A stretch of DNA of 32,000 bases from Sinorhizobium meliloti (lineage in GTDB: Bacteria; Pseudomonadota; Alphaproteobacteria; Rhizobiales; Rhizobiaceae), in assembly GCF_017876815.1 (NCBI RefSeq), contig NZ_JAGIOS010000003.1:840001-872000 (forward strand). The letters are read 5' to 3'. Below the pieces are notes generated by a model that made no database searches, was not told the DNA's origin, and saw nothing but the letters and a program-made list of their open reading frames with translations. This document shows positions 12,004 through 29,095 of the stretch, one piece after another (position 1 is the first letter of the stretch; each line of letters starts with the position of its first letter). A program made the position numbers and the translations under genes.

Positions 12004-12006
12004 GGG

Positions 12007-12040
12007 GCGGTTCCTGTTGATCCTTTATGCGATTTTCGAT
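12007..12040 (+). repeat. Junction repeat copy D (degenerate)
   Basis: GCGGTTCCTGTT GATCCTTTATGCGATT TTCGATG. It matches copy C at about 23 of 28 positions, including the upstream GTTCCTGTT. It begins 4 nt after the Fic stop. Confidence 0.7.
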
Positions 12041-12131
12041 GGAGAGGACGAGCGCGATAACGACGCGCCCGAAAATCTGGCTCATCTCCGATGCCCCTGA
12101 GGGGCAAAAAGAGGCAGGCTGGGCATACGTA

Positions 12132-13025
12132 TCAAAGGTCATCGAGTCTGAGCCGCATGGCTAGGAGGTCAACGAACGCGCGCACCTTCGCGGGCGGACG
12201 TGTACTTTCTTGCCAGAGGGCATGAATCGGCACTGGCTTGGGCTCAAACTCCTGCAATACGATTTCTACCTGCCCGGCATCCACAAGATGCCTGATCTGC
12301 CACAGAGGAGAATATCCCAACCCTAGGCCACTTCTTACAGCAGAATAAATCGCTGCCATTGCATTGGAGCGAAACGAACCCCGGACTCCAACCATCCGCC
12401 TCTTTCCATCAATTTGGAAGGCCCACTGCCCCGGTCTGTTGCCGATTGTTCTGACGATGCAGGCGTGCTGGCGCAATTCCGCAGGATGTTCTGGCCGGCC
12501 ATTCCGAGCAAAGTAGGAGGGTGCTCCGAACACCACCCGCCGTAGCGCACCCAATCTTTTACTCTGCAGGTTGGAATCAGGCAGGTCGGCAATGCGGACC
12601 ACTACATCTATCCCTTCGCTTGCAAGGTCGACGAACGCATCTGTCAAACTTAGATCGACCTCGGCCTGCGGATAGCTTTCAATGTATTCCGCGACGATCG
12701 GAACTAGAAAGTCTGGCCCGAACAGCATTGGTGCACCCACGCGCAGAATTCCGGATGGTCCAGTCCTGCGACCAGCCGCCTCAAGTTGGGCCTCTCTGAT
12801 TTCCAACACCGCTGGCTTCACCCGCCGATAAAAGGCCTGACCAGCCTCGCTGAGCGCAGAATGTCGTGTGGTGCGGTGAACAAGCTGAAGTCCAACGTCA
12901 ACTTCAAGTGATGTAAGGGAGCGGCTCACCGCTTGCAGCGAGCGATTGAGACGAGTCGCAGCCCGGGTAAGGCTACCACTTTCCGCGATATGGATGAATG
13001 CTTCAAGGTCTTCGAGGCGACTCAT
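12132..13025 (-). CDS. LysR-family transcriptional regulator
   Basis: N-terminal HTH LEAFIHIAESGSLTRAATRLNRSLQAVSRSLTSLE and a typical ~300-aa LTTR length. Start is ATG 13025, or 13037. It is divergent from an NmrA-like gene. Confidence 0.85.
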   Translation of the reverse strand: MSRLEDLEAFIHIAESGSLTRAATRLNRSLQAVSRSLTSLEVDVGLQLVHRTTRHSALSEAGQAFYRRVKPAVLEIREAQLEAAGRRTGPSGILRVGAPMLFGPDFLVPIVAEYIESYPQAEVDLSLTDAFVDLASEGIDVVVRIADLPDSNLQSKRLGALRRVVFGAPSYFARNGRPEHPAELRQHACIVRTIGNRPGQWAFQIDGKRRMVGVRGSFRSNAMAAIYSAVRSGLGLGYSPLWQIRHLVDAGQVEIVLQEFEPKPVPIHALWQESTRPPAKVRAFVDLLAMRLRLDDL

Positions 13026-13031
13026 ATTATC

Positions 13032-13044
13032 TCGCATATTGCGA
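13032..13044. promoter_or_regulatory. LTTR box (T-N11-A palindrome)
   Basis: TCGCAtatTGCGA is a perfect T-N11-A dyad in the LysR/NmrA divergent intergenic region. Confidence 0.5.
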
Positions 13045-13131
13045 TTCTATCTCCATCGCGACGTCAATTGTTACGTCTTCCACAGGAAATTAAAGTGCTC
13101 CCGCGTCATGAAATTTGCAAAGGACACGCTT

Positions 13132-14034
13132 ATGGTATTGAACCAACCAAAGATCCTCGTTGTTGGAGCCACCGGCAAATTCGCGCGCTGGGTTATTCCC
13201 GAACTGATGCGCCGCGACGCTGTCGTCCATGCGCTCGTGCGCAACGATGCACGGGCAGCCGTCGCCCGCTCGCTGGGTGTGGCCGAGGTTTTCATTGGAG
13301 ACCTCCGCAATACGGACAGTCTTGCCGAGGCAACGCGAGGCATGGACGGTGTCTTCTATATTGGCCCCGCGTTCACGCCTGACGAAGCAGCAATGGGGAT
13401 TGCCATCGTCGAGGCCGCAGAGCGAAACGGTGTGAAGAAGTTCGCCTTCTCGTCGGTGATCCAGCCTACGAACACGCGCCTGAAGAACCATGCGAGCAAA
13501 ATCCCGGTCGAGGAGGCGCTTTACTCGTCACGGCTCGAATATACAATCCTGCAGCCGGCGAACTTCATGCAGAACATCGGGATCGCGTGGCCATCGATCA
13601 TTCTGCATGGTCGCTTCGGAGAGCCATTCCCGAAAGACATCAAGATCGCTCGCGTTGATTACCGCGACGTCGCCGAGGTCGCAGCCATTGCACTTACGGA
13701 GGACAAGCTGGCATTTGCCACGCTTGAGCTGGCGGCAGGTATGTTCAGCCGTAATGACGTTGTTGCGGCTATCTCGGCAGAGCTCGGACGCCCGATAGAA
13801 GCGTTTGAGCCCAGCTTCAGCGAGTGGGTGCAGAGCGCCCGTCTACCTTACAGTGAGCAGCAGATGCACATGCTCTCAAAGATCCACGAGCACTACAGAA
13901 ACTACGGACTTGGGGGAAATAGCCTTTCGTTGACCGCTGCGTTGGGCCGCGAACCTCGTTCGCTGCGTGATTATATTCGGGAGTTGGCACGACAGAACGA
14001 TCCGTTAACGCCCCATCTCGCTAAGGATTCGTAG
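13132..14034 (+). CDS. NmrA-family NAD(P)-binding protein
   Basis: ATG 13132 lies 7 nt after AAGGA, with 13108 as an alternative. MVLNQPKILVVGATGKFARWVIPEL is a Rossmann motif. The track ORF start at 12946 overlaps the LysR gene. Confidence 0.8.
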   Translation: MVLNQPKILVVGATGKFARWVIPELMRRDAVVHALVRNDARAAVARSLGVAEVFIGDLRNTDSLAEATRGMDGVFYIGPAFTPDEAAMGIAIVEAAERNGVKKFAFSSVIQPTNTRLKNHASKIPVEEALYSSRLEYTILQPANFMQNIGIAWPSIILHGRFGEPFPKDIKIARVDYRDVAEVAAIALTEDKLAFATLELAAGMFSRNDVVAAISAELGRPIEAFEPSFSEWVQSARLPYSEQQMHMLSKIHEHYRNYGLGGNSLSLTAALGREPRSLRDYIRELARQNDPLTPHLAKDS

Positions 14035-14036
14035 TC

Positions 14037-14300
14037 ATGCAAATCGACCGTGAGCAATTGATGCGAAGAAAGCTCCCGCCGGGCTATGCGAGAGTTGTGA
14101 TGCCACTTGTTCTGTCCATCTTGATGTCGGGGGTCGTATCGGCAGTGGCTACCGCTAGTAACATAGGGCCAGGAGCCAGCTTTACTGCGGCCTGGCCGAA
14201 TGCGTGGGTCGCCTCATGGATGGTCGCATTTCCCACGCTGCTCGTCGTGTTACCACTCGTGCGTCGGCTCGTGGCAATAATCGTGGAGCAGCCACGTTAA
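14037..14300 (+). CDS. DUF2798-type small membrane protein
   Basis: 87 aa, starting 3 nt after the previous stop. KLPPGYARVVMPLVLSILMSGVVS...WPNAWVASWMVAFPTLLVVLPLVRRL matches the DUF2798 pattern as I remember it. Confidence 0.7.
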   Translation: MQIDREQLMRRKLPPGYARVVMPLVLSILMSGVVSAVATASNIGPGASFTAAWPNAWVASWMVAFPTLLVVLPLVRRLVAIIVEQPR

Positions 14301-14842
14301 AGCCATTTACCTTCGGCTCACGCCTCCGATATAGCTAGACTTTCCTCCCCCACGGCGGCGTGGACTCCGATCCCGTTTCACAGGCAGGCGTGAGAGGGAG
14401 TCCCGAGGGCTGCGCCCAAACATGGGCGACGATCCGGTGAAAATCATTGCTGGCGGTGCGGCCAGCAATGACGACCGAAAACTGGAGAGACTCTGTGGCC
14501 CCCAATTCCGCAAAGACGTCGGAAATGAAGAAGCAAGGACGGCAAAAAACTGACGATAAATAGCGCCCTTCCCTACCCCCCCGCCCTTCGACCGAAACCT
14601 GCACCTGGATCGATTACAGTTGGTGATATGCTGCCCATGCGCTATCGGATTCTCTCCAGCACCGGCGGGTTAATTCCGCCGCCCGCGCTCGGCGCGATTC
14701 TCCCCTCACTCCAGATACTCAAATATTCAAATTAAAGTACTTTCACTTCATACTTACATTTGCAGAACATCCAGTGAGAATTGGGAGTTATATTATCCCC
14801 TTCGGATATCATAATTTCTTCTTCACGCTGAGGAGCCCTATT

Positions 14843-16393
14843 ATGACAAGGATTGTTGGAACGAGTGCCGACGATACTCTGGATGGCATGGCGGAAGGCG
14901 ACCGGATCTGGAGTCTCGACGGCAATGATGTCGTGGATGGCGGCGCAGGCGACGACTTCGTCGATGGCGGGGCCGGCGACGATGCGCTGACAAGTTCAAG
15001 CGGCTTTGACGAGTTCACCGGCGGCGAAGGCAATGATCGGCTGTCGTTCATCGGTGTCGGCGGCGCGGCACGGGGCGGCACGGGGGTCGACACGCTTGTG
15101 GGCGATTACGCCGCGATATCCGATGCCTTCCTGTTCGATGGAATGCATGGCCACGCAGCCTTCGGCGATCTGTCGGTTAAGGGAAACCACCTTTATTTCC
15201 TCGATATCGAGCGGCTCTCTTTGACGACCGGGATCGGCGATGACAGGATCATTGCCACGGGCTTCAGCTTCGTCAACGTCCATACCGGTGCGGGTGACGA
15301 CCGTGTCGAAACCGGCATCGGCGATGACCAGATCTATGCTGGCGACGGCCGGGATCTGCTGTTTGGCGGCGGCGGCGACGATTTTATTCACGGCGGTCAG
15401 GGCGACGACTACGTTGACGGCGGCAACGACGACGACAGACTCGAGGGGGAGGATGGCAATGACAGTCTTGTGGGCGGTCGTGGCAACGACCGGCTCGACG
15501 GGGGCGGCGGCGATGACGACGTCAATGGTGGCGACGGCAACGACTCTCTGACCGGAGGCCTCGGATCGGATACGGTGACGGGCGGTGCCGGGGATGATTA
15601 CCTGAGCAATAGTTTTGCCGCCGGAGACATACTGCTCGGCGGCGACGGCAATGACACTCTCTCGGCGGGTGGGGAAGACACCGCCTATGGCGGATGGAGT
15701 GATCTCTACGGCGGCGCCGGCGATGACAGACTTCACATCTATACGGATGGTTCCTTGGGCGCATTGGACGGCGGCGAGGGTTTCGACCGAGCGAGCATCG
15801 CCCTCGATGATGTGCCCGCCGGCTTCGTTCTCGATGCATCGCGTTTTGGCTCGATCGAGGAGTTCAACATTACCGTTAAATCCGCCTATCGAGGCGTTCA
15901 CCTCTCCGGCGGGAATGGCAACGACAGGCTCTTCTGTTTTGATACATACAGGGAAGGTCCCAGCGGAAACGATGTTTTGAACGGGCGCAACGGCGATGAC
16001 ATACTCGTCGGCGGCAGTGGAGCGGATAGTCTGCTGGGCGGGGATGGCAACGACTCGCTGAGTGGCGAATATCACTCGGACAGGCTGCTCGGCGGCGCCG
16101 GCGCAGATCTTTTGACAGGTGGATCCGATGCCGACACGTTCATTTGGGACGAAGCCTCTGTCCGCAATGACAGGAGCGTCGATCGGATCACCGACTTCCG
16201 CGGCGGGGACGGTGATGTGCTTCTATTCCGCGGCTTTGGCGGTACCGAGTTTCGCGACTTCGAAAGCTTCCTCGCCGCCTCCCGTGACACGCCCGAGGGC
16301 GTTTACGTCAGTTTCGATGGCGACGCCCACGGGATATTGATCCAGAATACCCTGCTCGCTGATCTTTCGGCGGCGGACGTCTTGTTCGCCTGA
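14843..16393 (+). CDS. RTX-type calcium-binding repeat protein (hemolysin-type GGxGxD repeats)
   Basis: ATG 14843 lies 7 nt after GAGGAG. Many nonapeptide repeats are present (GGAGDDFVDGGAGDD, GGQGDDYVDGGNDDDRLEGEDGNDSLVGGRGNDRLDGGGGDDDVNGGDGNDSL...). No N-terminal signal peptide is seen. No T1SS genes are in the window. Confidence 0.85.
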   Translation: MTRIVGTSADDTLDGMAEGDRIWSLDGNDVVDGGAGDDFVDGGAGDDALTSSSGFDEFTGGEGNDRLSFIGVGGAARGGTGVDTLVGDYAAISDAFLFDGMHGHAAFGDLSVKGNHLYFLDIERLSLTTGIGDDRIIATGFSFVNVHTGAGDDRVETGIGDDQIYAGDGRDLLFGGGGDDFIHGGQGDDYVDGGNDDDRLEGEDGNDSLVGGRGNDRLDGGGGDDDVNGGDGNDSLTGGLGSDTVTGGAGDDYLSNSFAAGDILLGGDGNDTLSAGGEDTAYGGWSDLYGGAGDDRLHIYTDGSLGALDGGEGFDRASIALDDVPAGFVLDASRFGSIEEFNITVKSAYRGVHLSGGNGNDRLFCFDTYREGPSGNDVLNGRNGDDILVGGSGADSLLGGDGNDSLSGEYHSDRLLGGAGADLLTGGSDADTFIWDEASVRNDRSVDRITDFRGGDGDVLLFRGFGGTEFRDFESFLAASRDTPEGVYVSFDGDAHGILIQNTLLADLSAADVLFA

Positions 16394-16564
16394 GCACAGG
16401 CGTCGCCCTTCCCGAAAGCCCGGCGCCTTCCTACAATGACTACCTCAGAAATGAAGGCGAGGAGCGCCTTGGAATCGATTATCGCCAGTGCGCCTGATTC
16501 GTTCCGTCTGCGTATCGTTGCACCTCTTGGGAGCGCTTGACCGCCCTAAACCGAGAACGCGCTA

Positions 16565-16613
16565 GCCGTGCCCGACGATACATTATGCGATCATCGACGC
16601 ACAAATCGGAAAC
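16565..16613 (+). repeat. Junction repeat copy A
   Basis: GCCGTGCCCGAC GATACATTATGCGATC ATCGACGCACAAATCGGAAAC, with the perfect 16-bp core at 16577..16592. Confidence 0.8.
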
Positions 16614-16639
16614 AAACACAGCACAGTGCTCGGCAAATC

Positions 16640-16992
16640 CTATCCACCTTGTCGAAGACGATCGATGTTAGCGATCATCTGCTCGGCATGCACTCGGGCC
16701 TCTTCGCATGAGCCGTCGTGCCAGGCCGGCAGGGTAAGCGGCGCGATAGGACGTTGCAACGGCATGTAGCCGCACGCCTACGTCCCTCCCGTAGAGGTGA
16801 AACGTAGGTCGTCATGGGATGAGCTCCGACCCGCGTTTGATCGAGCAGTTTCCTGTCCTTAGAGACATACTGGGCTAGAGCCGTCGGCTCATAAACGAAT
16901 GCCGGGCCTACCACACCTCGCCGAGGACCTTCGGCACAGATGACAGCGTTAATGTGCCTTACCCCCTCCGCTATCATCGAATTTGCAGACAA
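16640..16992 (-). pseudogene. Decayed ORF fragments of unknown family
   Basis: The listed 105-aa ORF has an arginine-rich tail that looks out of frame. A different frame gives a protein-like ending (...GYMPLQRPIAPLTLPAWHDGSCEEARVHAEQMIANIDRLRQGG, stop 16640..16642). Upstream pieces are broken by stops in every frame. No family was recognised. Confidence 0.3.
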
Positions 16993-17162
16993 TCACATGC
17001 TTGCACTTGCACCTAACGACGAGACAGGCGCCCTCATCCAGTTGCTCAAGCGGATGACGTAGCCGCGACCGAGCTATGTGTGTCGAAGCTGAAATTCGAA
17101 ATGCCGCGTGAGCCTACCCGCCGCCGTTAAAGTTGTGGTTGGGATGCGTGGGAGAAACAAGC

Positions 17163-17197
17163 CGAGGGCGCTCAACCCGTCATGGGGAGCGCCCTCG
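17163..17197 (-). terminator. Strong GC hairpin, possible terminator
   Basis: CGAGGGCGCTC-N13-GAGCGCCCTCG forms an 11-bp perfect stem. On the minus strand it is followed by GCTTGTTTCTCC. Confidence 0.35.
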
Positions 17198-17310
17198 TTC
17201 ACCCACGACAAGCGAAAGCGCGACGATCATCGTCACTGCAGACAGTCGTTGAATTGGGTGATCAGCCTCAGATGAGAATCGTCACCCCACTTTTCAAGAT
17301 CATCTGGTAT

Positions 17311-17332
17311 AGTGGCGGCCGCAGCCGCCACT
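17311..17332 (-). terminator. Hairpin immediately after the MFS stop codon
   Basis: AGTGGCGGC cgca GCCGCCACT forms a 9-bp perfect stem 10 nt downstream of the stop at 17343. There is no clear U-tract. Confidence 0.35.
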
Positions 17333-17342
17333 CTTCTACCCG

Positions 17343-18941
17343 TTACGCGGCACCCGGTCGGTTTATCGTCATGAAGTGACGGACGACAGGCTTGTCGGGA
17401 CCGACATGGTAGGCGAGAACCTTGCCCTGCAGATCGGCGTCGGCATTGGACACCCGCTTGTGCTGGCGAAGATGTTCAGCCCAGGATTCCACCATGAACC
17501 ATTCGACGATCTTCTCGGGGTCGGCCGAATCCTCGGTCACGCCCCATCCGTAGGCACCATCGCGGCGGCGCTCCCTGGAAAGATGATCGATCGCGTGCAG
17601 GAAGGCTGTGCGGTGCTGCTTCTCGACCTTGTACTCGATCAGGATCAGAACCGGGCCGCGGTCATGGGCGATCGGTTCCGCAACAAGCGGCTCGGGCCAG
17701 TGGTTCGACGGCACCAGGTCGGCATCGCCGGCCGGAAGCTTCACGCGGTGCATTATGAGTCCGGCGATGAGCAGGCCGATGGCTCCAATGATCAAGGTGG
17801 ACTGGATGCCGACAGCCTCGCCGACCGCGCCCCAACCAAGGCTTCCGGCAGTCATCGCACCGTTGAAGACCGTCAGGTAGACGGCGAGCCCACGACCCCG
17901 TACCCAGTTGGGAAGAACTGACTGCGCAGTGCCATTGAGCGTTGTCAGGGCGGTGATCCACGCGCCACCGAGGAAGAGAAGAACGATGATGGCGACGACC
18001 TTCGGTGGAGCGAGAGCAAGGACTCCCATGACGGCTGCGGTGATCAGCGCGGCGCCGAGCAGCAGGCCGTCGGAACTCAGGCGTTCGCGAAGCTTCGGCA
18101 TCACCAGGGCTCCACCGATCGCGCCTGCACCGACTGCGCCCAGCAGGATGCCATAGAAGCCGGCATCGCCACCGAGCAGTTGCCGCGCAACGAGCGGGAG
18201 AAGCGCCCAGACGGCGCTGGCGAAGGCGAAGAAGATCGCGGCGCGCAAGAGGACGACGTGCAGTGGCGTGCTTGAGCGGGTGTAGCGAAGCCCGGCCCGG
18301 AACGCACCGAAGAAGTTCTCCTGGAGAGCATCGTTGGCGTTCTTGGCCCGTGGCCACCAGACAAGAGCGGCTATGACCACGATGTAGCTGGCGACATCGG
18401 CGCCGTAGGTGATTCCGGCTCCGAAGGCTGCGAGAAGCAGGCCGCCCGCAGCGGGGCCGATCGAGCGGGCGATGTTGATGCCGAGCGAGTTCAGCGCCAC
18501 TGCGCTCTTCACGTCCTCGCGCTTCACCAGTTCCGGAACGATCGCCTGCCAGGTCGGCCCCATCAGCGCGGCCCCAACGCCGCCGAGGAAGGTCAGGCCG
18601 ATCAGCGAGCTGACCGAGAGCATGCCCGTCTGCGACAGGACCATCAGGGAGATGCTGACGGAGGCGAGCAGGAGTTGGACGGCGATCAGAAATTTGCGGC
18701 GATCAAGGATGTCGGTGAGAACGCCTGCGGGAATGGCAAGCAGGAAGATCGGCAGGGTTCCGGCCGCCTGAACCATGGCCACCGCGGCGGGCGATGCGGA
18801 CAGATCCGTCATCAGCCAAGCGCTGGCGACATCGCGCATGAAGCTTCCGGTATTGCCGAGGACGGTCGCGGTCCACAGAACTGCGAAGACTGGCTGGGCA
18901 AGGGGCGCAAAGGTTCCCCCGGATGATTTTGCGGCGCTCAT
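17343..18941 (-). CDS. MFS transporter (EntS/MFS_3-like) fused to a ~120-aa C-terminal soluble domain
   Basis: The ATG at 18941 gives MSAAKSSGGTFAPLAQPVFAVLWTATVLGNTG..., followed by about 12 hydrophobic spans. The tail GPVLILIEYKVEKQHRTAFLHAIDHLSRERRRDGAYGWGV...ESWAEHLRQHKRV looks ferredoxin-like/ABM-like. The upstream 183 nt of the track ORF overlap the DoxX gene. Confidence 0.8.
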   Translation of the reverse strand: MSAAKSSGGTFAPLAQPVFAVLWTATVLGNTGSFMRDVASAWLMTDLSASPAAVAMVQAAGTLPIFLLAIPAGVLTDILDRRKFLIAVQLLLASVSISLMVLSQTGMLSVSSLIGLTFLGGVGAALMGPTWQAIVPELVKREDVKSAVALNSLGINIARSIGPAAGGLLLAAFGAGITYGADVASYIVVIAALVWWPRAKNANDALQENFFGAFRAGLRYTRSSTPLHVVLLRAAIFFAFASAVWALLPLVARQLLGGDAGFYGILLGAVGAGAIGGALVMPKLRERLSSDGLLLGAALITAAVMGVLALAPPKVVAIIVLLFLGGAWITALTTLNGTAQSVLPNWVRGRGLAVYLTVFNGAMTAGSLGWGAVGEAVGIQSTLIIGAIGLLIAGLIMHRVKLPAGDADLVPSNHWPEPLVAEPIAHDRGPVLILIEYKVEKQHRTAFLHAIDHLSRERRRDGAYGWGVTEDSADPEKIVEWFMVESWAEHLRQHKRVSNADADLQGKVLAYHVGPDKPVVRHFMTINRPGAA

Positions 18942-22880: not shown

Positions 22881-23813
22881 TCATGCCGCCAGCGGCACGA
22901 GGTTAGCCTGGATCTGTTCGCGGTATTCCTCGTATCTGACCGGAAGCTTAAGAGCTTCCCCGAGGTGGGCTGTATCCTCGTCGCGGTTGAATCCGGGCTC
23001 GTTTGTGGCGACCTCGAAGAGGATACCGCCCGGTGTGCGGAAGTAGATGGCCCAGAAATAATCGCGGTCGATGACGGGGGTGACCTGGTAGCCAGTGTCC
23101 ATCAGCGCCTTGCGCACCTCGAGCTGCTTCTCGCGGTTGTCGACGGCGAATGCAATATGGTGCACCGAACCTGCACCCTGTCGCGCGAAAGGAGTCTTTG
23201 GCAATGCCAGTAGATCGATCGTGTCCGCTCCGTTACCGTTGGATATGATGAAGCGTACAACGTCGCCCTCCTTCTCGGCGCGCTCGTAGCCCATGAAGCC
23301 GAGCAGCTCCTCCGTTGCAGCGGAGTCGTGCAGGCTGAAGCGTGCGCCAGCGAAACCGCGGATGGCCGCATCATCTGGAATTCCATCTGCCAGCCACGGA
23401 GCGCGCTTGTCGTCAGCGGACTCGATAAGCGCAAAGCTGTCGCCGTCCGGTCCCATGAAGCGGAGTCGGTCCGCGCCGAAGACAGTATCGCGTTCCAGAC
23501 CGTCCACGCCTTGGGTTGTGAAGCGATCCTGCCAGAACTTCAGCGATCCCTTGGGAACGGAGAACTGGGTCTCGCCGACTTCACCGACACCGGGGCGGCC
23601 GAGCATCATGTTCGGGAACGGGAAGTAGGTCATCACCGTTCCGGCCGAGCCCGTCTCGTCACCATAGTAGAGGTGATAGACGCTCGGGTCGTCGAAGTTG
23701 ACAGTCTGCTTGACGCGACGAAGACCGAGCGTGTCGGTGAAGAAGCGGTTGTTCTGCCGCGCGTCCGATGCCATCGAAGTCACGTGGTGCAGTCCCTTGA
23801 TGTCCTTGATCAT
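22881..23813 (-). CDS. Ring-cleaving dioxygenase, VOC/glyoxalase superfamily (MhqA/MhqO-like)
   Basis: MIKDIKGLHHVTSMASDARQNNRFFTDTLGLRRVKQTVNFDDPSVYHLYYGDETGSAGTVMTYFPF is the typical N-terminus of this ~310-aa family. Start is at ATG 23813. Confidence 0.8.
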   Translation of the reverse strand: MIKDIKGLHHVTSMASDARQNNRFFTDTLGLRRVKQTVNFDDPSVYHLYYGDETGSAGTVMTYFPFPNMMLGRPGVGEVGETQFSVPKGSLKFWQDRFTTQGVDGLERDTVFGADRLRFMGPDGDSFALIESADDKRAPWLADGIPDDAAIRGFAGARFSLHDSAATEELLGFMGYERAEKEGDVVRFIISNGNGADTIDLLALPKTPFARQGAGSVHHIAFAVDNREKQLEVRKALMDTGYQVTPVIDRDYFWAIYFRTPGGILFEVATNEPGFNRDEDTAHLGEALKLPVRYEEYREQIQANLVPLAA

Positions 23814-23878
23814 TTTGAAGCCTCTCGGTTGGTGTTCCGGTGTTGATAAGAATGTAGACCCGTTGATCGCCGCTCGTA

Positions 23879-23907
23879 ATTGCAATATTCCTTTTGATTG
23901 AATTGCA
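23879..23907 (+). promoter_or_regulatory. Operator-like site S3 in the dioxygenase/LysR divergent region
   Basis: ATTGCAATATTCCTTTTGATTGAATTGCA, with 23-bp spacing. It also reads as TGCAAT-N15-ATTGCA. It lies 18 nt upstream of the LysR start and 66 nt upstream of the dioxygenase start. Confidence 0.6.
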
Positions 23908-23924
23908 GTTTATGAAACAATGAG

Positions 23925-24824
23925 ATGAACGACTACAAAGCTCTCCGCACCTTTCTGCTCGCCGCTGAGAAGCGGAACTTTGCCCAGGTCGCGCGCGAAC
24001 TGGACATGACGCCAGCAGCCGTCACACGGGCGATCGCCGCCCTCGAGGCGGAACTTGGCGTGCAGCTCTTCGTTCGCACGACGAGACAGGTATCGCTGAC
24101 GACCGACGGCGCGATCTTTGCCGCGCAGCTCCAACCCGCTGTGAAAACGATCGAAGACGCACGGCGTGAAGTAATGAACGCCCACAAGGCCGATGAGGGG
24201 CGGCTCCGGATCAGCGCGCCGACGTGGTTCGGCAAGGCGGTGCTGCCGCCGATCCTTTCAGCGTTCAAGGAACGGTATCCCAAGATGAGCTTCGAGATCT
24301 CGCTTTCGGATGGATTGGTGAATATCGTCGATGACGACTACGATCTGGCGATCCGCATCTCGTCGCAGCCGTCGGACAAATTCACCATCTGGCGTAAGAT
24401 CAGGGTTGTGCCGCGCATCCTGGTTGCCGCTCCCGGGAGCAGGTTCGTCGACATGCAGCACCCGAACGAACTGACACCGGACGACTGCCTCGCCTACAGC
24501 GGCGATAGCCGACGTGAGAACTGGGTGCTGTCGGACGGCGGATCGAGCATAACGATTTCGGCTGGCCGGGCATTCAGCGCCAACAACGGTGAAGTGCTCG
24601 CCGATATCGCCGCGGATGGCGCGGGTGTCGCCATGCTGCCAGGATTCCACATTTTCGAGCATCTTCGTACAGGGCGACTCGTACACGTCTTCAAAGGCTG
24701 GGCACCGCCGGATTTGTGGTTAACCCTTTACTATCCGCCCTACCAGGCCCTTCCGCCGCGGATCGCTTCCTTCTCCAAGTTTTTTGAAGAGCAGGTTCCA
24801 GCGCACATGGTCATGCTGGATTGA
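23925..24824 (+). CDS. LysR-family transcriptional regulator
   Basis: HTH LRTFLLAAEKRNFAQVARELDMTPAAVTRAIAALEAELGVQLFVRT. Length is 299 aa. It is divergent from the dioxygenase gene. Confidence 0.85.
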   Translation: MNDYKALRTFLLAAEKRNFAQVARELDMTPAAVTRAIAALEAELGVQLFVRTTRQVSLTTDGAIFAAQLQPAVKTIEDARREVMNAHKADEGRLRISAPTWFGKAVLPPILSAFKERYPKMSFEISLSDGLVNIVDDDYDLAIRISSQPSDKFTIWRKIRVVPRILVAAPGSRFVDMQHPNELTPDDCLAYSGDSRRENWVLSDGGSSITISAGRAFSANNGEVLADIAADGAGVAMLPGFHIFEHLRTGRLVHVFKGWAPPDLWLTLYYPPYQALPPRIASFSKFFEEQVPAHMVMLD

Positions 24825-24825
24825 G

Positions 24826-25084
24826 GCCTATCCTTGCGGACATATCAGCTCGTTTGCTGTGCCTTGGTACGTTCGGCTACGAGCGCCGACGCGCCACCTC
24901 CGCTACCGAACTGCCGGACAGCTGCGCTTCTTCAACAATTCGCCATTTGTCTTCCAGCGACCAGTTTCGTCGAGCGCTTCGCTCATTCCCGATATCGGGT
25001 ACCGCCATAGTATCCACCTAGCACTTGGTGGGCGCTATCCCACTCCAAGGTAGTGCCGGTAGGCGGCCATCACGCCACGCTTAC
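24826..25084 (-). mobile_element. IS66-family fragment: left end plus degenerate 5' part of tnpA
   Basis: The minus strand begins with GTAAGCGTGGCGTGATGG at 25084; GTAA is the family-typical terminus. An ATG at 25008 follows, giving MAVPDIGNERSARRNWSLEDKWRIVEEAQLSGSSVAEVARRRS*. This matches the RRRWS..EK..IV......G.SV..VARRHG pattern of IS66 TnpA. There is an in-frame stop at 24877..24879, and the rest is truncated next to the LysR stop. Confidence 0.6.
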
Positions 25085-25149
25085 GACCTTCGCGTGGAAA
25101 AACAATTGTGTTACGGGCAGCGCCACGCCCGAAACGACTTCGCTGGTTC

Positions 25150-25197
25150 GCTCTTCCAGTCGATACATTATGCGATCCTGACGAACAAGCCGGGAAC
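25150..25197 (+). repeat. Junction repeat copy B
   Basis: GCTCTTCCAGTC GATACATTATGCGATC CTGACGAACAAGCCGGGAAC, with the core at 25162..25177. It lies between the IS66 fragment and the IS30 element and outside both. Confidence 0.8.
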
Positions 25198-25200
25198 GTT

Positions 25201-26313
25201 GGTACATTCTATTTCCAAGTGCGACATTCCAATAAAAACAAAGGCTTCGCCTTGGAGATTTTTGGATGTCGCTTTGCTATTCGCAACTCACCCTTTCCGA
25301 TCGACGACGTTTGCATCAGCTCGTGGAACGCAAAGTTCCTGTCGGTGAGATCGCCCGCCAACTCGGTCGGCATCGATCGACGATCTATCGTGAACTGAAG
25401 CGCAATACCTTTCATGATGCCGAGTTTCCGGAATACAGCGGCTATTACAGCGGTATCGCCAACGACATCTCGAAGGAGCGTCGGCGACGGCTGCGCAAGC
25501 TCAGCCGCCACCCGCAATTGCGCGAACTGGTCATCGAGCAGCTGAAGGCACTTTGGTCGCCGGAGCAGATCGCCGGCCGTCTGCTTGCCGATGGTGTGAG
25601 CGCCGTCCGCGTCTGCACCGAGACGATCTATCGCTTCATCTATAGCAAGGAAGATTATGCGCTGGAGCTCTATCAGCATCTGCCGGAAGGCCGTCGTAAG
25701 CGCCGCCCACGCCGCTCCCGCAAACCCGTGACGGCTCGATCCCGTTGGACTGCAGGATCAGCCAACGCCCTGATTTCATTGCCGATCGCTCTCAGTTCGG
25801 CCACTGGGAGGGTGATCTCCTGATCTTCCGGCGCGACCTTGGTGAAGCCAATGTCACCTCGCTGGTCGAGCGCAAGAGCCGCTACACGGTGATGATCAAG
25901 AATGGCAGCCGTCACTCTCGTCCGCTCATCGACAAGATCATCGATGCCTTCTCACCGCTACCCGCCTTTGCCCGGCAGAGCTTCACCTTCGACCGTGGTA
26001 CCGAGTTTCGCGGTTTCAAGGCTTTGGAAGATGGACTCGGCGCCAGGAGCTGGTTTTGCGATCCGAATTCACCGTGGCAGAAAGGCGCGGTCGAGAACAC
26101 CAACAAGCGCATCCGTCGCTTTGTGCCGAGCGATACGGACCTGTCCGCCGTCAACCAGCCGCAACTGGTCGCCCTCGCCCACCATCTCAATTCACTGCCC
26201 AGGAAATGCCTTGGTTACCGCACGCCCGCCGAGGTCTTCATGGCCCATTTGCGCGATTGCGGGTAATCCCCTACCCTCCACCCGTCATTGTTGCACTTGG
26301 ATTAGATTCTCCA
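25201..26313 (+). mobile_element. IS30-family insertion sequence (~1.1 kb) with 3-bp target duplication
   Basis: The imperfect terminal inverted repeats are GGTACATTCTATTTCCAAGTGCGACA on the left and TGGAGAATCTAATCCAAGTGCAACA on the right (reverse complement). GTT is present on both flanks (25198..25200 and 26314..26316). Confidence 0.7.
25266..26266 (+). pseudogene. IS30-family DDE transposase, interrupted by a frameshift near 25725-25730
   Basis: The first frame runs MSLCYSQLTLSDRRRLHQLV...LPEGRRKRRPRRSRKP. A second frame, open from 25700, continues ...RDGSIPLDCRISQRPDFIADRSQFGHWEGDL...FDRGTEF...QKGAVENTN (the DDE residues). No slippery sequence is seen. Confidence 0.75.
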
Positions 26314-26357
26314 GTTTCGTGATTCCAATGGGCCACGTCTCTGCCCCATAAGGAATT

Positions 26358-26870
26358 TTACGCCTCCGGGGCCTCCGGCTGAGGGCCGATCGCTTCGATC
26401 TCAGCGATTTTCTGAAACTCCCCAAGACATTCTGGGCGGTGATACGAAAGCCACCGAATGATGCGAGTGTTGGCGAGCAGCTTGGCAACGTATCCGCGTG
26501 CGACGGTAAGATGCAGATTGTCGATGCCGTAAGTTTCCTCGCGCTTTTCACTTGAGTCTGAAGTGCTGCCAGGTCCCTTTCCATCCGGGCAATCTGCTGG
26601 CCTGACGGCGTGGATGCAGCAGCGCCTGTCATCTTTTTGGCTGCGACCAACTGGCTGTCAGTCGTACGAATTCATCTGCCCGCATGCAGCGCTGCGGCCA
26701 CTTGAAACCTCGCCCTGCTCCTCCATCTTCTCGCGCAGTACTAGCTCCACGAACGTGGGAGGGCCAGGAGCAAGCCTGCTGCCCACAGATCGTCAACAGA
26801 GCATGTCGCCCTGCTGTTCGTCCGCATTGACCGGCAGTCTTGAACAGGTCGCGCCCTTCCTCTTCGTTTC
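26358..26870 (-). pseudogene. Frameshifted relic gene of unknown family
   Basis: The last ~60 codons read cleanly (EETYGIDNLHLTVARGYVAKLLANTRIIRWLSYHRPECLGEFQKIAEIEAIGPQPEAPEA, stop 26358..26360), but that frame has no start. Upstream protein-like text (QQIARMERDLAALQTQVK; PTFVELVLREKMEEQGE) sits in two other frames. The upstream limit is approximate. Confidence 0.4.
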
Positions 26871-26888
26871 CGATGAAGGGAGATGGAA

Positions 26889-28088
26889 ATGGCAAAGGTC
26901 GTTTGCGTGCTTTATGACGATCCGGTCGATGGCTACCCGACGGCTTACGCGCGGGATGGCCTGCCGACGCTGGAGCGCTACCCCGGCGGCCAGACGCTCC
27001 CCACCCCGAAGGCGATCGACTTTGAGCCAGGCGCCCTCCTGGGCAGCGTCTCCGGCGAACTGGGTTTGAGAAAATTTCTCGAAAGCCAAGGGCATACCCT
27101 GGTGGTGACATCGGACAAGGACGGTCCCGACAGCGTCTTCGAGCGAGAGCTCGTAGACGCCGAGATCGTCATCTCGCAACCTTTCTGGCCGGCTTACATC
27201 ACCGCCGAGAGGATCGTCAAGGCGGCCAGGCTGAAGCTTGCGATCACCGCCGGCATCGGCTCGGACCACGTCGACCTTCAGGCCGCGATCGACCGCGGCA
27301 TTACCGTCGCCGAGGTGACCTATTGCAATTCGATCAGCGTGTCCGAGCATGTGGTGATGATGATCCTCAGCCTCGCGCGCAACTATATCCCCTCCTACCA
27401 GTGGGTCGTAAAAGGTGGCTGGAACGTCGCCGACTGCGTTGCGCGTTCCTATGACATCGAGGGCATGGACATCGGCACGGTGGGCGCTGGGCGGATCGGC
27501 ACCGCGGTGCTGCGCCGGCTCAAACCGTTCGATGTCAAGCTGCACTACACCGACCGGCACCGGCTTCCGGACGAGGTCGAGAAGGAGCTCGGCGTTACTT
27601 TCCATCAGACGGCGGCGGAAATGGTGCCCGTTTGCGACGTCGTGACGATCAATGCGCCCCTCCACCCGGAGACGGAAAACCTCTTCAACGAGGCGATGAT
27701 CGGCAAGATGAAGCGCGGTGCCTATCTGGTGAACACCGCGCGCGGCAAGATCTGCAATCGCGATGCCATCGCACGGGCGCTCGAAAGCGGCCAACTCGCC
27801 GGCTATGCCGGTGACGTTTGGTTCCCGCAGCCGGCGCCCAAGGACCATCCGTGGCGCTCGATGCCCCATCACGGCATGACGCCGCATATTTCGGGTTCCT
27901 CGCTCTCCGCCCAGGCGCGCTATGCCGCGGGCACGCGAGAGATTCTCGAATGCTGGTTCGGGGGCAGGCCGATCCGCGAGGAATATCTGATCGTCTCCGG
28001 CGGCAAGCTCGCCGGCGCCGGCGCCCACTCCTACAGCGCCGGAGACGCGACTCGCGGATCCGAGGAAGCAGCACACTTCAAGACCTGA
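26889..28088 (+). CDS. fdh: NAD+-dependent formate dehydrogenase (D-2-hydroxyacid dehydrogenase superfamily)
   Basis: Near-colinear with Pseudomonas sp. 101 FDH as recalled (MAKVxCVLYDDPVDGYP, GQTLPTPKAIDF, GSVSGELGLRK, TSDKDGPDSVFERELVDA, AGIGSDHVDLQ, VAEVTYCNSISV, GTVGAGRIG, GDVWFPQPAPKDHPWR, GSEEAA). ATG 26889 lies 6 nt after GAAGGGAG. Confidence 0.95.
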   Translation: MAKVVCVLYDDPVDGYPTAYARDGLPTLERYPGGQTLPTPKAIDFEPGALLGSVSGELGLRKFLESQGHTLVVTSDKDGPDSVFERELVDAEIVISQPFWPAYITAERIVKAARLKLAITAGIGSDHVDLQAAIDRGITVAEVTYCNSISVSEHVVMMILSLARNYIPSYQWVVKGGWNVADCVARSYDIEGMDIGTVGAGRIGTAVLRRLKPFDVKLHYTDRHRLPDEVEKELGVTFHQTAAEMVPVCDVVTINAPLHPETENLFNEAMIGKMKRGAYLVNTARGKICNRDAIARALESGQLAGYAGDVWFPQPAPKDHPWRSMPHHGMTPHISGSSLSAQARYAAGTREILECWFGGRPIREEYLIVSGGKLAGAGAHSYSAGDATRGSEEAAHFKT

Positions 28089-28107
28089 ACGCGGGCGGGC
28101 TTTTCTG

Positions 28108-28134
28108 CGGCCGTGCGGGGCAGCCGCACGGCCG
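28108..28134 (+). terminator. Hairpin terminator candidate after fdh
   Basis: CGGCCGTGCGG ggcag CCGCACGGCCG forms an 11-bp perfect stem 20 nt after the stop. It is followed by GTTGATGTTTCTC, a weak U-tract. Confidence 0.5.
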
Positions 28135-28255
28135 GTTGATGTTTCTCCAGCGGCCGTCTTACAGTTCACCGGTGTGATCTCTGCGATCACCGTGTTCAGC
28201 AAGCCGTCAGAATCACTCGGCCTGCCACAAGCATCTGCCGTGGAGATTTGAATCT

Positions 28256-28307
28256 TGGGCGCCTTGAACGGGATCGAACCTTCGACCTCTTGATAATCGG
28301 CGTGCCT
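28256..28307 (-). other. tRNA-like 3' fragment (T-arm plus acceptor 3' strand), degenerate
   Basis: The minus strand reads ...AGGTCGAAGGTTCGATCCCGTTCAAGGCGCCCA. GGTTCGATCC is a canonical T-loop. The T-stem GAAGG/CC(G)TTC needs a 1-nt bulge. No matching 5' acceptor strand, D-arm or anticodon stem was found upstream. Confidence 0.3.
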
Positions 28308-28349
28308 AGGGAATTGCTGGGTCCCACGACGCGATGAATGAGGCTGCTT

Positions 28350-28640
28350 CTACCCGTCGTCGAGCTCGCTGGGCCACTTCTGGGCGCCGTGCAGGACACG
28401 CAGAATTCGAATTCTATCCTCCATTACCATGTAGGCTGCAATGTAGGTCCGAGGGATAACAAGCTCTCGAGTTGCGGCAATCCGGCCAGGGCGGCCGCTT
28501 TCCGGAAAATCAAGCAGACGACGTACCGCGCTGACGATCTCCTCGTCGACGTGGACCGCCGCCCTCGGATTCTCCCTTTCGATGTAACTGAAGATGGTGT
28601 CGCGATCGTCAAGCGCATATCGCGCCCAGACGAGCCTCAT
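28350..28640 (-). CDS. Type II toxin, RelE/ParE family
   Basis: 96 aa. MRLVWARYALDDRDTIFSYIERENPRAAVHVDEEI...GRPGRIAATRELVI...IAAYMVMEDRIRILRVLHGAQKWP fits the ParE/RelE pattern. ATGA overlap with the antitoxin stop. Confidence 0.8.
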   Translation of the reverse strand: MRLVWARYALDDRDTIFSYIERENPRAAVHVDEEIVSAVRRLLDFPESGRPGRIAATRELVIPRTYIAAYMVMEDRIRILRVLHGAQKWPSELDDG

Positions 28641-28945
28641 CGATCACCCGCCGCAGCCTTGCGCAAAGCTGCCGCCCGGCGCTCTCGAAAGTGCGCATCG
28701 GCGTCGGCATCGTCGACGTCGGGTCGGGTATCCTCGAGTGCCCGCAACACTTTGGCGCGGAACCAAGCGTCGTGCGCCTCGCTGTGGCTGAAGAGTTCCA
28801 GCGGCAGGGCGCCCTCATTCGCCGTCCGAGTTAACAGGATTCGAACAGCGTCCGAGACCGTCAGACCCATGTTCTCTAAAACCGCCGTGGCGCGCTCTTT
28901 GACCTCGGCATCGATTCGAGTCTGAACAAGTGCATTTGAAGCCAT
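28637..28945 (-). CDS. Type II antitoxin, RelB/DinJ family (ribbon-helix-helix)
   Basis: ATG 28945 lies 6 nt after AAGGAG. MASNALVQTRIDAEVKERATAVLENMGLTVSDAVRILLTRTANEGALPLE is a typical DinJ/RelB N-terminus. Confidence 0.8.
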   Translation of the reverse strand: MASNALVQTRIDAEVKERATAVLENMGLTVSDAVRILLTRTANEGALPLELFSHSEAHDAWFRAKVLRALEDTRPDVDDADADAHFRERRAAALRKAAAGDR

Positions 28946-29046
28946 ATGCAATCTCCTTCATCGCCAATGTAATGCACATGCACGACAAATTCTAGAGCCG
29001 CCGCAACTGTCTCATGGCCGAATCACCGACTCGGGCCGGCGACAAC

Positions 29047-29095
29047 GCCGTTCCTGTTGATACATTATGCGATCTGTTGAGCACGGAACGAGAAC
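29047..29095 (+). repeat. Junction repeat copy C
   Basis: GCCGTTCCTGTT GATACATTATGCGATC TGTTGAGCACGGAACGAGAAC, with the core at 29059..29074. The copy is bracketed by CGTTCC...GGAACG. Confidence 0.8.

Follow-up and report, generated by a model that had tools for sequence, protein, structure and literature searches.

Dif-like repeats of Sinorhizobium meliloti pSymA as probable Xer-type recombination sites bounding mobile multi-gene cassettes

Plasmids of Acinetobacter carry many copies of 28-bp dif-like sites, termed pdif, which bound discrete modules (resistance, toxin-antitoxin and others), often with toxin-antitoxin pairs, that occur in varying contexts and lack a recombinase gene. In these sites, both arms are kept, the XerD arm best, the orientation alternates around each module and the XerC side is targeted by insertion sequences (PMC10132070). 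The IMEX, i.e. CTXphi, TLCphi and VGJphi of Vibrio and the gonococcal genetic island, are mobile without a recombinase of their own and carry a dif-like site with one defective arm. They integrate at the host dif itself, so that the site ends up as direct repeats, and arrays arise when further elements integrate in succession; the TLCphi site is without a proper XerD arm. Integron arrays (attC sites, IntI integrase) are direct arrays of promoterless single genes with one site per cassette that is completed on circularisation, with strain-variable order and content, precise occupied and empty sites, and IS110/IS1111-family elements targeting the recombination site. In cer of ColE1 and psi of pSC101, a dif-like core is accompanied by extra conserved sequence on the XerC side; the accessory regions are about 180 bp long and bind PepA with ArgR or ArcA, and the XerD arm is the well-conserved one. 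The sfx sites of the R64 shufflon (recombinase Rci) are asymmetric, in that the spacer and a single arm are conserved while the second arm varies; they are 19 bp long, lie within a single 2-kb locus in which prominent inversions alter a pilus gene, and need the adjacent rci gene.

The repeat described here was found in a window (the whole stretch of DNA that was analysed, 32,000 nucleotides) of an SM11-like S. meliloti pSymA, and the pdif modules, the IMEX and the integron arrays appear to be the known systems with which it can best be compared. It shares with pdif the 28-bp dif-like format, the many copies on plasmids, the insertion sequences on the XerC side and the type of module, but of the XerD arm only GGAAC is left, the invariant parts are the XerC arm and spacer, an extension of 20-60 bp is present on the XerC side and the copies form long direct arrays in a Rhizobiaceae host. 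The likeness to the IMEX extends to mobility, the defective arm and the arrays; however, in strain 1021 some 300 kb separate the arrays from the pSymA dif, the overlap sequence is unlike that of all three host dif sites, and the cargo consists of ordinary metabolic, stress and toxin-antitoxin genes rather than phage genomes, with no match among the viral contigs searched. The direct arrays, the one site per cassette, the variable order and content and the precise occupied and empty sites of integrons recur here, as do IS110-family elements at the recombination site, whereas an attC-type hairpin is absent, no integrase was detected in the array stretches scanned, and each cassette comprises multiple genes that face either way and include regulators of their own. 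The single copy on many Rhizobium plasmids is what is expected of a multimer-resolution site such as cer or psi; in contrast to these, the extension is short, the XerD arm is the degenerate one and each pSymA carries 10-19 cassette-bounding copies. The asymmetry and the inversions are reminiscent of the shufflon, but its 19-bp size, single pilus locus and adjacent rci are all inapplicable here.

A scan of the window for the 16-mer GATACATTATGCGATC yielded three exact matches, at 16577 (copy A), 25162 (copy B) and 29059 (copy C), and one match with three mismatches at 12019 (copy D), all on the plus strand. These four matches compare with 0.24 expected, and none of 100 shuffles of the window reached four. 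All copies are intergenic between convincing genes: D between Fic and LysR, A between RTX and a hypothetical gene followed by MFS, B between LysR and an IS30-family insertion sequence, and C between RelB/ParE and a CsbD islet. The four-copy intergenic repeat in one orientation proposed in the first-pass annotation was borne out, and the flanks quoted there were correct on re-reading. Copy D, called degenerate there, is more than a decayed copy: it is a real member of the family with another spacer, and strain HM006 has a site that combines D-right with C-left. Beyond the window, the repeat occurs at 10-19 places per pSymA and at one or two on many Rhizobium and Ensifer plasmids; 201 plasmids carry sites.

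Read on the minus strand, the site consists of an XerC arm (nGATCGCATAA; TTATGCGATC), a 6-bp spacer (TGTATC) and a remnant of the XerD arm (nnnnGGAAC). The unit is self-contained and spans about 47 bp, with 9 bp to the left of the core and 22 bp to its right, although some subfamilies are longer (up to about 90 bp, reaching about +70); the XerC-side extension had no counterpart at the one host dif site examined. The published dif sites of S. meliloti are GGATCACATAA-GATAGA-TTATGGAACTA for the chromosome and AAATCAGATAA-TCAACA-TTATGGAACTA for pSymA, the latter of which we confirmed in the sequence, and the dif-like sites of rhizobial plasmids include ATATCGCATAA-TCTAAT-TTATGGAACCG. At 9-10 of its 11 positions, the XerC arm of the repeat agrees with the dif of the chromosome, of pSymA or of rhizobial plasmids. 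From the XerD arm, the outer GGAAC alone is retained, exactly 10 nt from ATAA, so that the 6-bp spacer and the 4-bp offset to GGAAC are the same as in dif; the TTCC of the left flank belongs to this outer motif of the host XerD arm and is correctly spaced. The inner half of the arm, TTAT, which is the most conserved part of dif sites in general, was found in 0 of 53 distinct sites (those with at most two mismatches to the core). The 13 of 16 identities to E. coli dif counted earlier are arithmetically correct, and the likeness rises once host dif sites are used for the comparison. While the dif-like nature of the XerC arm and spacer stands, the XerD position is not wholly repeat-specific, as had been stated, since the five bases on its outer side represent the host XerD motif.

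The geometry pattern GTTCC-N10-TTATNNGAT retrieved the four copies and nothing else, against 0.04 expected. A weight matrix built from 12 published Rhizobiaceae dif sites only placed D, C and B at ranks 1-3 among about 64,000 window positions, with totals for the repeat of 9-14 bits compared to 28-38 bits for real dif sites and with negative scores for the XerD arm. Among the 53 distinct sites, the most frequent core change is at position 4, within the predicted overlap (A in Sinorhizobium, C or G in Rhizobium), and further changes are scattered over core positions 5-6 and the XerC arm.

The four sites delimit three cassettes. Site D (28-bp core at 12008..12035, minus strand, AAATCGCATAA / AGGATC / AACAGGAACCG for XerC arm, spacer and XerD-arm remnant) is the best weight-matrix match in the window, with 14.5 bits in total and 17.0 for the XerC arm, and has a weakly conserved extension to about 12053. 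It is followed by cassette 1 (12036..16565), in which Pfam identified LysR, NmrA-like, DUF2798 and an RTX calcium-binding protein; its right part corresponds to positions 1190000-1193533 (plus strand) of 1021 pSymA, and in HM006 it comes after the formate dehydrogenase (FDH)/toxin-antitoxin cassette. Site A (16566..16593, minus strand, TGATCGCATAA / TGTATC / GTCGGGCACGG) has GGCAC as XerD remnant and an XerC-arm score of 10.4. Its extension (16594..16626, plus strand, subfamily 'ATCGACGCACAAATCGGAAACAAACACAGCACAG') occurs with 91% identity in R. etli bv. mimosae, E. canadensis and R. chutanense, where the DNA beyond it is unrelated. Cassette 2 (16594..25150), annotated from ml66, encodes a hypothetical protein, MFS, DoxX, amidohydrolase, XapX, hydrolase, VOC and LysR, and is colinear with 1021 pSymA 207354-198750 (minus strand) at 99.6% identity with both ends at cores. 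The XerC arm of site B (25151..25178, minus strand, GGATCGCATAA / TGTATC / GACTGGAAGAG) agrees with that of the chromosomal dif at 10 of 11 positions. Cassette 3 (25179..29047) contains formate dehydrogenase and a ParE/RelB toxin-antitoxin pair with an IS30-family insertion, and lies between B and C both here and in ml66, where 1021 has one hybrid site. The module is placed elsewhere in 1021 (263172-258077) and also occurs on plasmid pRmeGR4b; the extension of site B (25179..25200, plus strand, CTGACGAACAAGCCGGGAACGTT) travels with it, behind a different left arm each time. Site C (29048..29075, minus strand, AGATCGCATAA / TGTATC / AACAGGAACGG) is flanked by an extension (29076..29096, plus strand, TGTTGAGCACGGAACGAGAAC) which, together with the CsbD module, is found behind three different left arms, in SM11 (296349), in 1021 (242681) and in this window.

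Comparisons between strains revealed that multi-gene blocks are inserted, removed, reordered or flipped exactly at the repeat. The check proposed in the first-pass annotation, whether synteny breaks coincide with copies, was positive at all four, with the exchange confined to the 16-bp core. At copy A, matches to dozens of strains that cover only the left side stop at 16592 and those that cover only the right side begin at 16577, and the limits at B, C and D are equivalent; breaks of synteny fall at 12007-12037 for D and at the core for B. Besides the junction of D-right with C-left in HM006, the left arm plus core of B is joined to a different right arm in 1021. Left and right arms pair combinatorially in the 53 distinct sites, and one left arm occurs with up to four right arms: C-left plus core has four right partners, in SM11, in RU11/001 and ml66, in this window and in 1021. 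In 1021, the modules of the window lie at 1190-1193 kb, 207-198 kb, 263-258 kb and 242-240 kb, i.e. in permuted order with all junctions at sites. Modules differ in array position or replicon between strains, and occupied and empty sites are precise; at the position of a single window site, for instance, B399 carries two direct sites with an additional 1.3 kb between them. Over a 19-kb stretch, SM11, RU11/001 and this window reach 99.9-100% identity and yet differ at junction C, which points to recent exchange; the SM11 parental sites have 19 bp in common there and no more. As both partners carry the identical core, the crossover can be narrowed down to 16-19 bp and no further.

The copies are probably Xer-type site-specific recombination sites that bound mobile multi-gene cassettes and are served by a host enzyme, a reading to which we assign a probability of roughly 0.6. 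The earlier idea of a dif-type site that shuffles cargo modules is supported by the host-dif match, the weight matrix and the synteny breaks, and a role of XerC/XerD is what we infer in addition. Each copy would be a conservative site of the Xer/dif type with the minus-strand order extension (20-60 bp), XerC arm nGATCGCATAA, overlap TGTATC and XerD-arm remnant nnnnGGAACnn. Two copies would be synapsed, most probably by chromosomally encoded XerC and XerD of the host or else by a catalysing XerC with XerD only loosely bound, with strand exchange at the borders of their identical overlap; as a consequence, the DNA of one side would keep the XerD-side arm, and that of the other the XerC arm plus extension. 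Recombination of direct copies would release the intervening genes as a circle with one complete site, which could re-enter at any other copy on pSymA or another plasmid, and recombination of inverted copies on opposite replichores would flip the segment containing the origin. The predicted outcome is an array of multi-gene cassettes varying in order, presence and replicon among strains, and the repeat looks like the joint of a natural system for shuffling gene cassettes. Points that count against this reading are the loss of TTAT, the low weight-matrix totals, the overlap unlike that of the host dif sites and the extension; because arrays of direct copies persist, any activity of the sites must be rare or controlled.

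It is possible, though unlikely, that the sites belong instead to a dedicated recombinase, of the tyrosine or another type, whose gene lies on the chromosome or elsewhere on pSymA, in which case the likeness to dif would reflect common ancestry of this enzyme with XerC rather than use of host Xer proteins. The non-canonical XerD arm in 53 of 53 sites and the family-specific extension would fit such an enzyme, and one resolvase-like ORF about 5 kb from an SM11 site and one integrase-like ORF about 3 kb from a site in S. terangae were found. However, no recombinase is consistently near the sites: a search with an E. coli XerD sequence, which covered part of each replicon and would overlook very divergent enzymes, detected no tyrosine recombinase in 331 kb of pSymA with at least 25 sites, and none is present in the window or beside single-copy sites on other plasmids. 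Moreover, the conserved arm is exactly the host XerC arm, and GGAAC is exactly the outer motif of the host XerD arm at the host spacing.

We consider it improbable that the repeat is a dispersed protein-binding or functional intergenic element, e.g. a parking site for XerC/XerD, whose homology is used in rare RecA-mediated or illegitimate crossovers. Such events would land on the repeats because these are the sole similarity between otherwise unrelated regions, some partner pairs have up to about 37 bp in common (1021 copy), and the direct arrays are stable. Yet the identity at several junctions is just 16-19 bp, and efficient RecA recombination usually needs longer identity. Many independent events at many copies, also between near-identical strains, and the recurrence of cassettes on other replicons, where the site halves are distributed exactly as expected of a directional site, further argue for site-specific recombination.

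Insertion sequences lie close to several sites. The IS30-family element beside B (25201..26313, plus strand, split transposase) is inserted at the outer edge of the site B extension and begins 23 nt past the core, in agreement with the earlier statement that the core is not an IS terminus; it is 97.8% identical to a copy that in 1021 lies next to the genuine pSymA dif, 13 nt away from its XerC arm. In 1021, M162, S. fredii and several Ensifer species, the outer side of the XerC arm is followed within 0-3 bp by an IS110-family element. Both families are found next to the XerC arm, the IS30 family at repeat sites as well as at the true pSymA dif, and this is a hint that the repeat is handled by cells as if it were dif. 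It is very unlikely that the breakpoints were made by copies of such site-targeting elements at different sites, which would recombine by homology and then excise precisely, leaving hybrid sites. At three sites and at the true dif, an IS30-family element is found within 13-23 nt of the XerC arm, but most hybrid sites are without an IS or scar, and at site B the element was simply inserted, outside the exchanged region, with duplication of 3 bp of target (GTT). This scenario also requires three rare steps per event and leaves the dif-like anatomy unaccounted for.

An RNA motif, promoter, terminator or MITE is hardly credible: the repeat is intergenic, oriented and multi-copy, and catalogued S. 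meliloti intergenic repeats are reportedly transcribed, but none of these functions explains an exchange confined to the core, and the IS or MITE end and RNA motif named as alternatives in the first-pass annotation gained no support from Rfam (no match), folding (no hairpin, with energies on both strands indistinguishable from those of shuffles, z -1.4 to +1.2) or reading of the flanks by eye (no terminal inverted repeats or target duplications noticed). The alignments contained no conserved partner gene, and neither a sigma-70-like promoter-like site nor a terminator-like site overlapped the core. Terminator-like predictions were overall no commoner than in shuffles; the sole ones nearby were weak stems, beside C and D, whose end coincides with the XerD remnant.

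The 16-bp core GATACATTATGCGATC occurs exactly at positions 16577 (copy A), 25162 (copy B) and 29059 (copy C) of the window and with three mismatches at 12019 (copy D), always on the plus strand, as had been noticed in the first-pass annotation, whose quoted flanks also proved right. These four matches compare with 0.24 expected, and four were reached by none of the shuffles. All copies are indeed located between convincing genes: D between Fic and LysR, A between RTX and a hypothetical plus MFS gene, B between LysR and an IS30-family IS, and C between RelB/ParE and the CsbD islet. Positions 10000-29074 of the window are 100% identical to SM11 pSmeSM11c and RU11/001 pSymA; since the window's junction at C was present in no record of the plasmid collection, the strain resembles SM11 but is distinct from it. 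Matches to a 61-bp query taken around copy C were present in 201 plasmid records, at 1081 places (records: Sinorhizobium 134, Rhizobium 46, Ensifer 16, Phyllobacterium 4 and Pararhizobium 1), with 10-19 places per S. meliloti pSymA and 1-2 on most other plasmids. In a collection with one genome per species, the 15-base core gave matches with the family flanks from Ensifer, Sinorhizobium and Rhizobium among the matches listed, which do not amount to a census of the repeat; nearly all other matches listed were chance occurrences in unrelated taxa without these flanks. The repeat had no match in viral contigs, and a phage origin was rejected.

To map breakpoints, 3-kb queries were taken with one copy each at their centre. 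In all four cases, A to D, matches restricted to the left side stop with the last base of the core or a few bases past it, and matches restricted to the right side begin with its first base or a few bases earlier; the coincidence of synteny breaks with the copies, which the first-pass annotation had suggested checking, was borne out at the core of all four. In the table of sites, left and right halves pair freely: the left half of C was found with four different right halves (in SM11; in RU11/001 and ml66; in the window; and in 1021), the CsbD-type right half with three left halves, the left half of B and the RTX left half each with two right halves, and one Rhizobium left half with two right halves in two species. 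Since the N4 bases and GTTCC always stay with the left DNA and the bases directly after the core always with the right DNA, the exchange is confined to the 16-bp core (spacer plus XerC arm), in which the partners are identical; this is compatible with exchange at the borders of the spacer. The parental SM11 sites at C have in common only GTTGATACATTATGCGATC (19 bp), and the event at the C junction must be recent because its flanks are 99.9-100% identical to the window. On this comparative evidence, the sites very probably serve as recombination junctions.

The gene blocks between the sites were then compared with pSymA of strain 1021. The right part of cassette 1 (RTX; window 13079-16613) corresponds to 1190000-1193533 (+) of 1021 pSymA, cassette 2 (MFS to LysR; 16577-25179) to 207354-198750 (-), cassette 3 (FDH plus TA; 26314-29094) to 263172-258077 (-) and the CsbD module (29059-32000) to 242721-240308 (-). 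Between window and 1021, the modules keep their orientation relative to the sites, their order differs and each junction is a site; every module is bounded by the XerC arm with its extension on one side and by the XerD remnant on the opposite side. Sites B and C enclose the FDH plus ParE/RelB module in the window as well as in SM11, RU11/001 and ml66, and at this place 1021 has a single hybrid site composed of the left half of B, the core and the right half found after C in ml66. The same module, with the same XerC-side extension at its head and with different left arms, was found at another array position in 1021 and also on the accessory plasmid pRmeGR4b. It thereby occurs in three contexts including another replicon, and more than one context is likewise seen for the MFS and CsbD modules. 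In HM006, the right half of D is joined to the left half of C, and B399 carries a 1.3-kb segment with a direct site at each end in place of the single site C of the window. Such occupied and empty patterns would be expected if modules excised between direct sites and re-entered elsewhere.

Some smaller differences were observed in these comparisons. A stretch of ~525 bp (29497-30022) with a CsbD-family ORF (29752-29991) is missing from the otherwise colinear 1021 pSymA (at 242.3 kb). On pRmeGR4b, a reverse-transcriptase gene (65334-66290; compared locus L133), probably that of a group II intron, is located where the match of the FDH module to the window ends and may truncate this copy of the module. 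Point changes or small indels are present in the core of many 1021 copies (192595, 207316, 242681, 243626, 258077, 263172 and 1193487; loci L130-L132), together with which SM11 1290661 and 1300018 (locus L126) are listed; examples are GATACATTGTGCGATC, GATA--TTATGCGATC and ...GCGACC. The cores of A, B and C are intact in the SM11 lineage, and it is possible that the site array decays in some strains while it remains competent in others.

In order to relate the repeat to host dif sites, we used the putative sites of S. meliloti 1021 for the chromosome (GGATCACATAA GATAGA TTATGGAACTA), pSymB (AAATCAGATAA CGCATG TTATGGAACAT) and pSymA (AAATCAGATAA TCAACA TTATGGAACTA) (PMC13342612, Supplementary Data 2c), the last of which was confirmed in the 1021 record, and the rhizobial plasmid dif-like sites adjoining ISRel26, ATATCGCATAA TCTAAT TTATGGAACCG (PMC10132070). 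Copy B reads GGATCGCATAA TGTATC GACTGGAAGAG on the minus strand. The XerC arms of the repeat are identical to those of the host sites at 9-10 of 11 positions, with GGATCGCATAA of copy B compared with the chromosomal GGATCACATAA, and AAATCGCATAA of copy D with AAATCAGATAA of pSymA and ATATCGCATAA of the plasmids. The spacer has 6 bp, GGAAC is found exactly 10 nt from ATAA as in host dif, and the geometry pattern GTTCC-N10-TTATNNGAT is matched by the four copies only (0.04 expected); the spacer sequence TGTATC is unlike the spacers of all three host dif sites. The first-pass annotation had described the position of the XerD arm as occupied by repeat-specific sequence, which does not hold for its outer part, as the TTCC of the left flank is the host XerD GGAAC at host spacing. 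The inner TTAT is gone in 53/53 distinct sites; no 11-bp XerD arm with inner TTATG was retained in any of these sites, only the outer GGAAC. With a weight matrix built solely from 12 published Rhizobiaceae dif sites, D, C and B took ranks 1-3 of ~64,000 window positions; the XerC arms scored 10-17 bits and the XerD arms negatively (-2 to -5 bits), giving totals of 9-14 bits in the copies compared to 28-38 bits in true dif sites. The canonical XerC arm and spacing, in combination with the missing inner XerD arm, make these sites half-canonical. The commonest core variant between genera among the 53 sites affects core position 4, inside the predicted spacer, and rarer changes affect positions 5-6 and also the XerC arm.

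Pfam searches on the ORFs detected no recombinase gene in the window. A tblastn search with an approximate E. coli XerD query, sensitive enough to pick up the integrase of one unrelated locus (40% identity), gave no tyrosine recombinase within 331 kb of pSymA containing at least 25 sites. The sole recombinase-like match in these 331 kb of array sequence was a resolvase-like (serine recombinase) ORF at ~280.4 kb of SM11 pSmeSM11c (10432-10869 of compared locus L128), ~5 kb from site 285937, and on other plasmids, the annotation around three single-copy sites shows no recombinase up to a distance of 6 kb. With this one ORF as the entire yield of the Pfam search in the window and the tblastn search in the 331 kb, a local recombinase was rejected. 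From the lack of a local recombinase together with the host-type XerC arm and the GGAAC motif, we infer that chromosomal XerC/XerD would be the enzyme; XerC-led catalysis with weak XerD binding, a mode of some Vibrio IMEX, is plausible by analogy. We regard a dedicated recombinase encoded elsewhere as rather unlikely.

The reading favoured by the first-pass annotation, a dif-type site that shuffles cargo modules, is supported by the core-confined exchange, the permuted cassettes and the host-type XerC arm. We give a probability of about 0.6 to the full statement that these are Xer-type sites bounding mobile cassettes, Xer dependence being the best interpretation of the sequence comparisons. 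More tentatively, and with somewhat less than even odds, the repeat would define an integron-like cassette system of rhizobial symbiotic megaplasmids that lacks an integrase of its own and is a main source of variation in the pSymA-type accessory genome. On this bolder reading, each multi-gene cassette would own half of a stripped-down dif, comprising the XerC arm with its extension on one side and the outer XerD motif on the opposite side, and the chromosome-dimer resolution enzymes of the host would excise cassettes, reinsert them, swap them between replicons and invert them across the origin, with catalysis probably driven by XerC on a site barely bound by XerD.

The junctions could also have arisen through RecA acting on the short homology of a repeat whose primary function is a different one. 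We consider this improbable, as such events are hard to square with an identity of 16-19 bp, do not fit the number of independent events and leave the directional partition of the site halves unexplained. IS-mediated routes are very unlikely in spite of the IS elements present, which start outside the core and have their own ends: most hybrid sites are without IS, and at B the IS30-family copy has simply inserted beyond the segment that was exchanged, duplicating GTT there. Readings of the repeat as an RNA, a promoter or a MITE failed their own tests and deserve next to no credence.

In an all-against-all BLAST of 20 loci, similarity between copies starts 9 bp left of the core and always extends at least 22 bp past it, to ~70 bp in some subfamilies, followed by unrelated DNA and unrelated genes; the consensus of the 53 distinct sites is GTTCC-N4-GATACA-TTATGCGATC-(extension with GC.CA.AACG.GAAC). 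The end of a longer element was rejected on this restriction of similarity to the unit itself, an IS or MITE terminus on the same limits of 9 bp on the left and 22-70 bp on the right, and a conserved neighbouring gene on the unrelated annotated neighbours of single-copy sites. Neither inverted termini nor target duplications were noticed upon reading the flanks of the aligned copies, as opposed to a dedicated scan. A known RNA family was dropped upon zero Rfam matches at gathering thresholds. Promoter or terminator identity was rejected likewise: no promoter-like or terminator-like sites lie over the cores, and the two weak terminator-like stems that end at the XerD remnants of C and D belong to matches no commoner than in shuffles. 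Single-strand folding of the repeat was not better than that of shuffles on either strand, and hairpin-forming single-strand sites of the attC, IS200/IS605 or CTXphi type were rejected accordingly. The catalogued S. meliloti intergenic repeats RIME, MOTIF A/B/C and Sm-1 to Sm-5 are described as palindromic or structured; the repeat is without structure and its core string does not occur in the openly searchable literature, which makes identity with them less likely, although it may still bear a catalogue name. The same literature also contained no description of the repeat family under dif, pdif or Xer combined with rhizobial names. R. etli p42d carries a copy of the repeat, and the IntA attA/attD sites of R. 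etli p42a/p42d were rejected as its identity, the published att sequence, a 23-bp palindromic site TCCGATAAGCATTACTTATCGGA, being unrelated to it (PMC4928290).

The sites are uniformly oriented within each array. In SM11, those at 1.28-1.37 Mb are all '+' and those at 0.286-0.300 Mb all '-'; in 1021 pSymA, eight sites at 190-263 kb share the '-' strand, with '+' for the 1193 kb site. Since repC of 1021 is located at 1350 kb in the 1354-kb record, the origin separates the two clusters of 1021, and in each of them the XerC side is the one nearer to it; the SM11 clusters have the same strand pattern, the position of repC having been read in 1021 only. The pattern fits arrays that would have originated from directional integration and later been split by inversions across the origin, and it may be historical rather than functional. 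A single reciprocal inversion at A is not claimed, because the reciprocal product of the 1021-to-SM11 rearrangement was not found in the SM11 stretches fetched, from which inversion and cassette transfer are not always separable for a given strain difference.

The systems closest to the pSymA repeat are Acinetobacter pdif modules, IMEX, cer/psi-type plasmid Xer sites and integron arrays. Like pSymA modules, the same Acinetobacter dif module is found in several plasmid contexts bounded by sites, but its sites alternate in orientation, whereas the pSymA arrays have one orientation each. IMEX integrate at the host dif, whereas the pSymA dif of 1021 lies at 546 kb and the arrays at 190-263 kb and 1193 kb, and the repeat spacer TGTATC differs from all three host dif spacers. 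Integrons have attC sites that form imperfect hairpins and an adjacent intI, in contrast to a repeat that folds as shuffles do, with no tyrosine recombinase in 331 kb. The asymmetry of the sites resembles that of shufflon sfx sites. Since a defining feature of each of the closest systems fails (full XerD arm, alternation, host-dif location, attC hairpin/intI), the repeat family is filed as a new variant of Xer-type modular recombination that belongs to no single one of them. Modular mobility that exploits Xer has mainly been described for Acinetobacter plasmids and for the IMEX of Vibrio and Neisseria; the system, if true, would add plant symbionts to these, and its architecture, dominated by the XerC arm, would be unusual. 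No part of rhizobial genomes varies more than the pSymA-type megaplasmids, on which nodulation, nitrogen-fixation, stress and niche genes are located, and a defined 28-47-bp site exchanging whole gene blocks would give a concrete, testable mechanism for this variability and also account for large inversions between close strains. The sites could serve as natural landing pads in the engineering of inoculant strains and as markers predicting which segments of symbiotic plasmids move together.

Two families of insertion sequences were observed next to the sites. The IS30-family element at 25201-26313 has the end GGTACATTCTATTTCC, a 3-bp duplication GTT and a split transposase (HTH_38 ORF 25266-25823, rve ORF 25745-26266). 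The same end is turned towards the XerC side at site B (distance 23 nt), at an Ensifer oleiphilus site (locus L007; 15 nt) and at the genuine pSymA dif of 1021 (13 nt; 1021 pSymA 544896-546009 in locus L125), and at locus L121 and SM11 1282820 (L126) it abuts the stub of an IS110-family element beside the XerC arm; these positions suggest that the IS30-family element may target the XerC flank of dif-type sites. The IS110-family element (ends TGTAACGGGC...GCCCGTTACA; Pfam DEDD_Tnp_IS110 and Transposase_20) has its insertion point just beyond the XerC arm, at a distance of 0-3 bp, in S. meliloti, in S. fredii and in several species of Ensifer (L111 3690-5160, 1021 pSymA ~221976 in L131, and loci L135, L136, L036, L038, L048, L069 and L076), in which it resembles IS1111 elements that target integron attC sites. 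Elsewhere in the window, a 606-aa ORF at 6843-8663 (-) without Pfam match runs antisense to the luciferase-like monooxygenase gene at 7587-8888 (+) and is probably spurious, of a kind common in GC-rich DNA.
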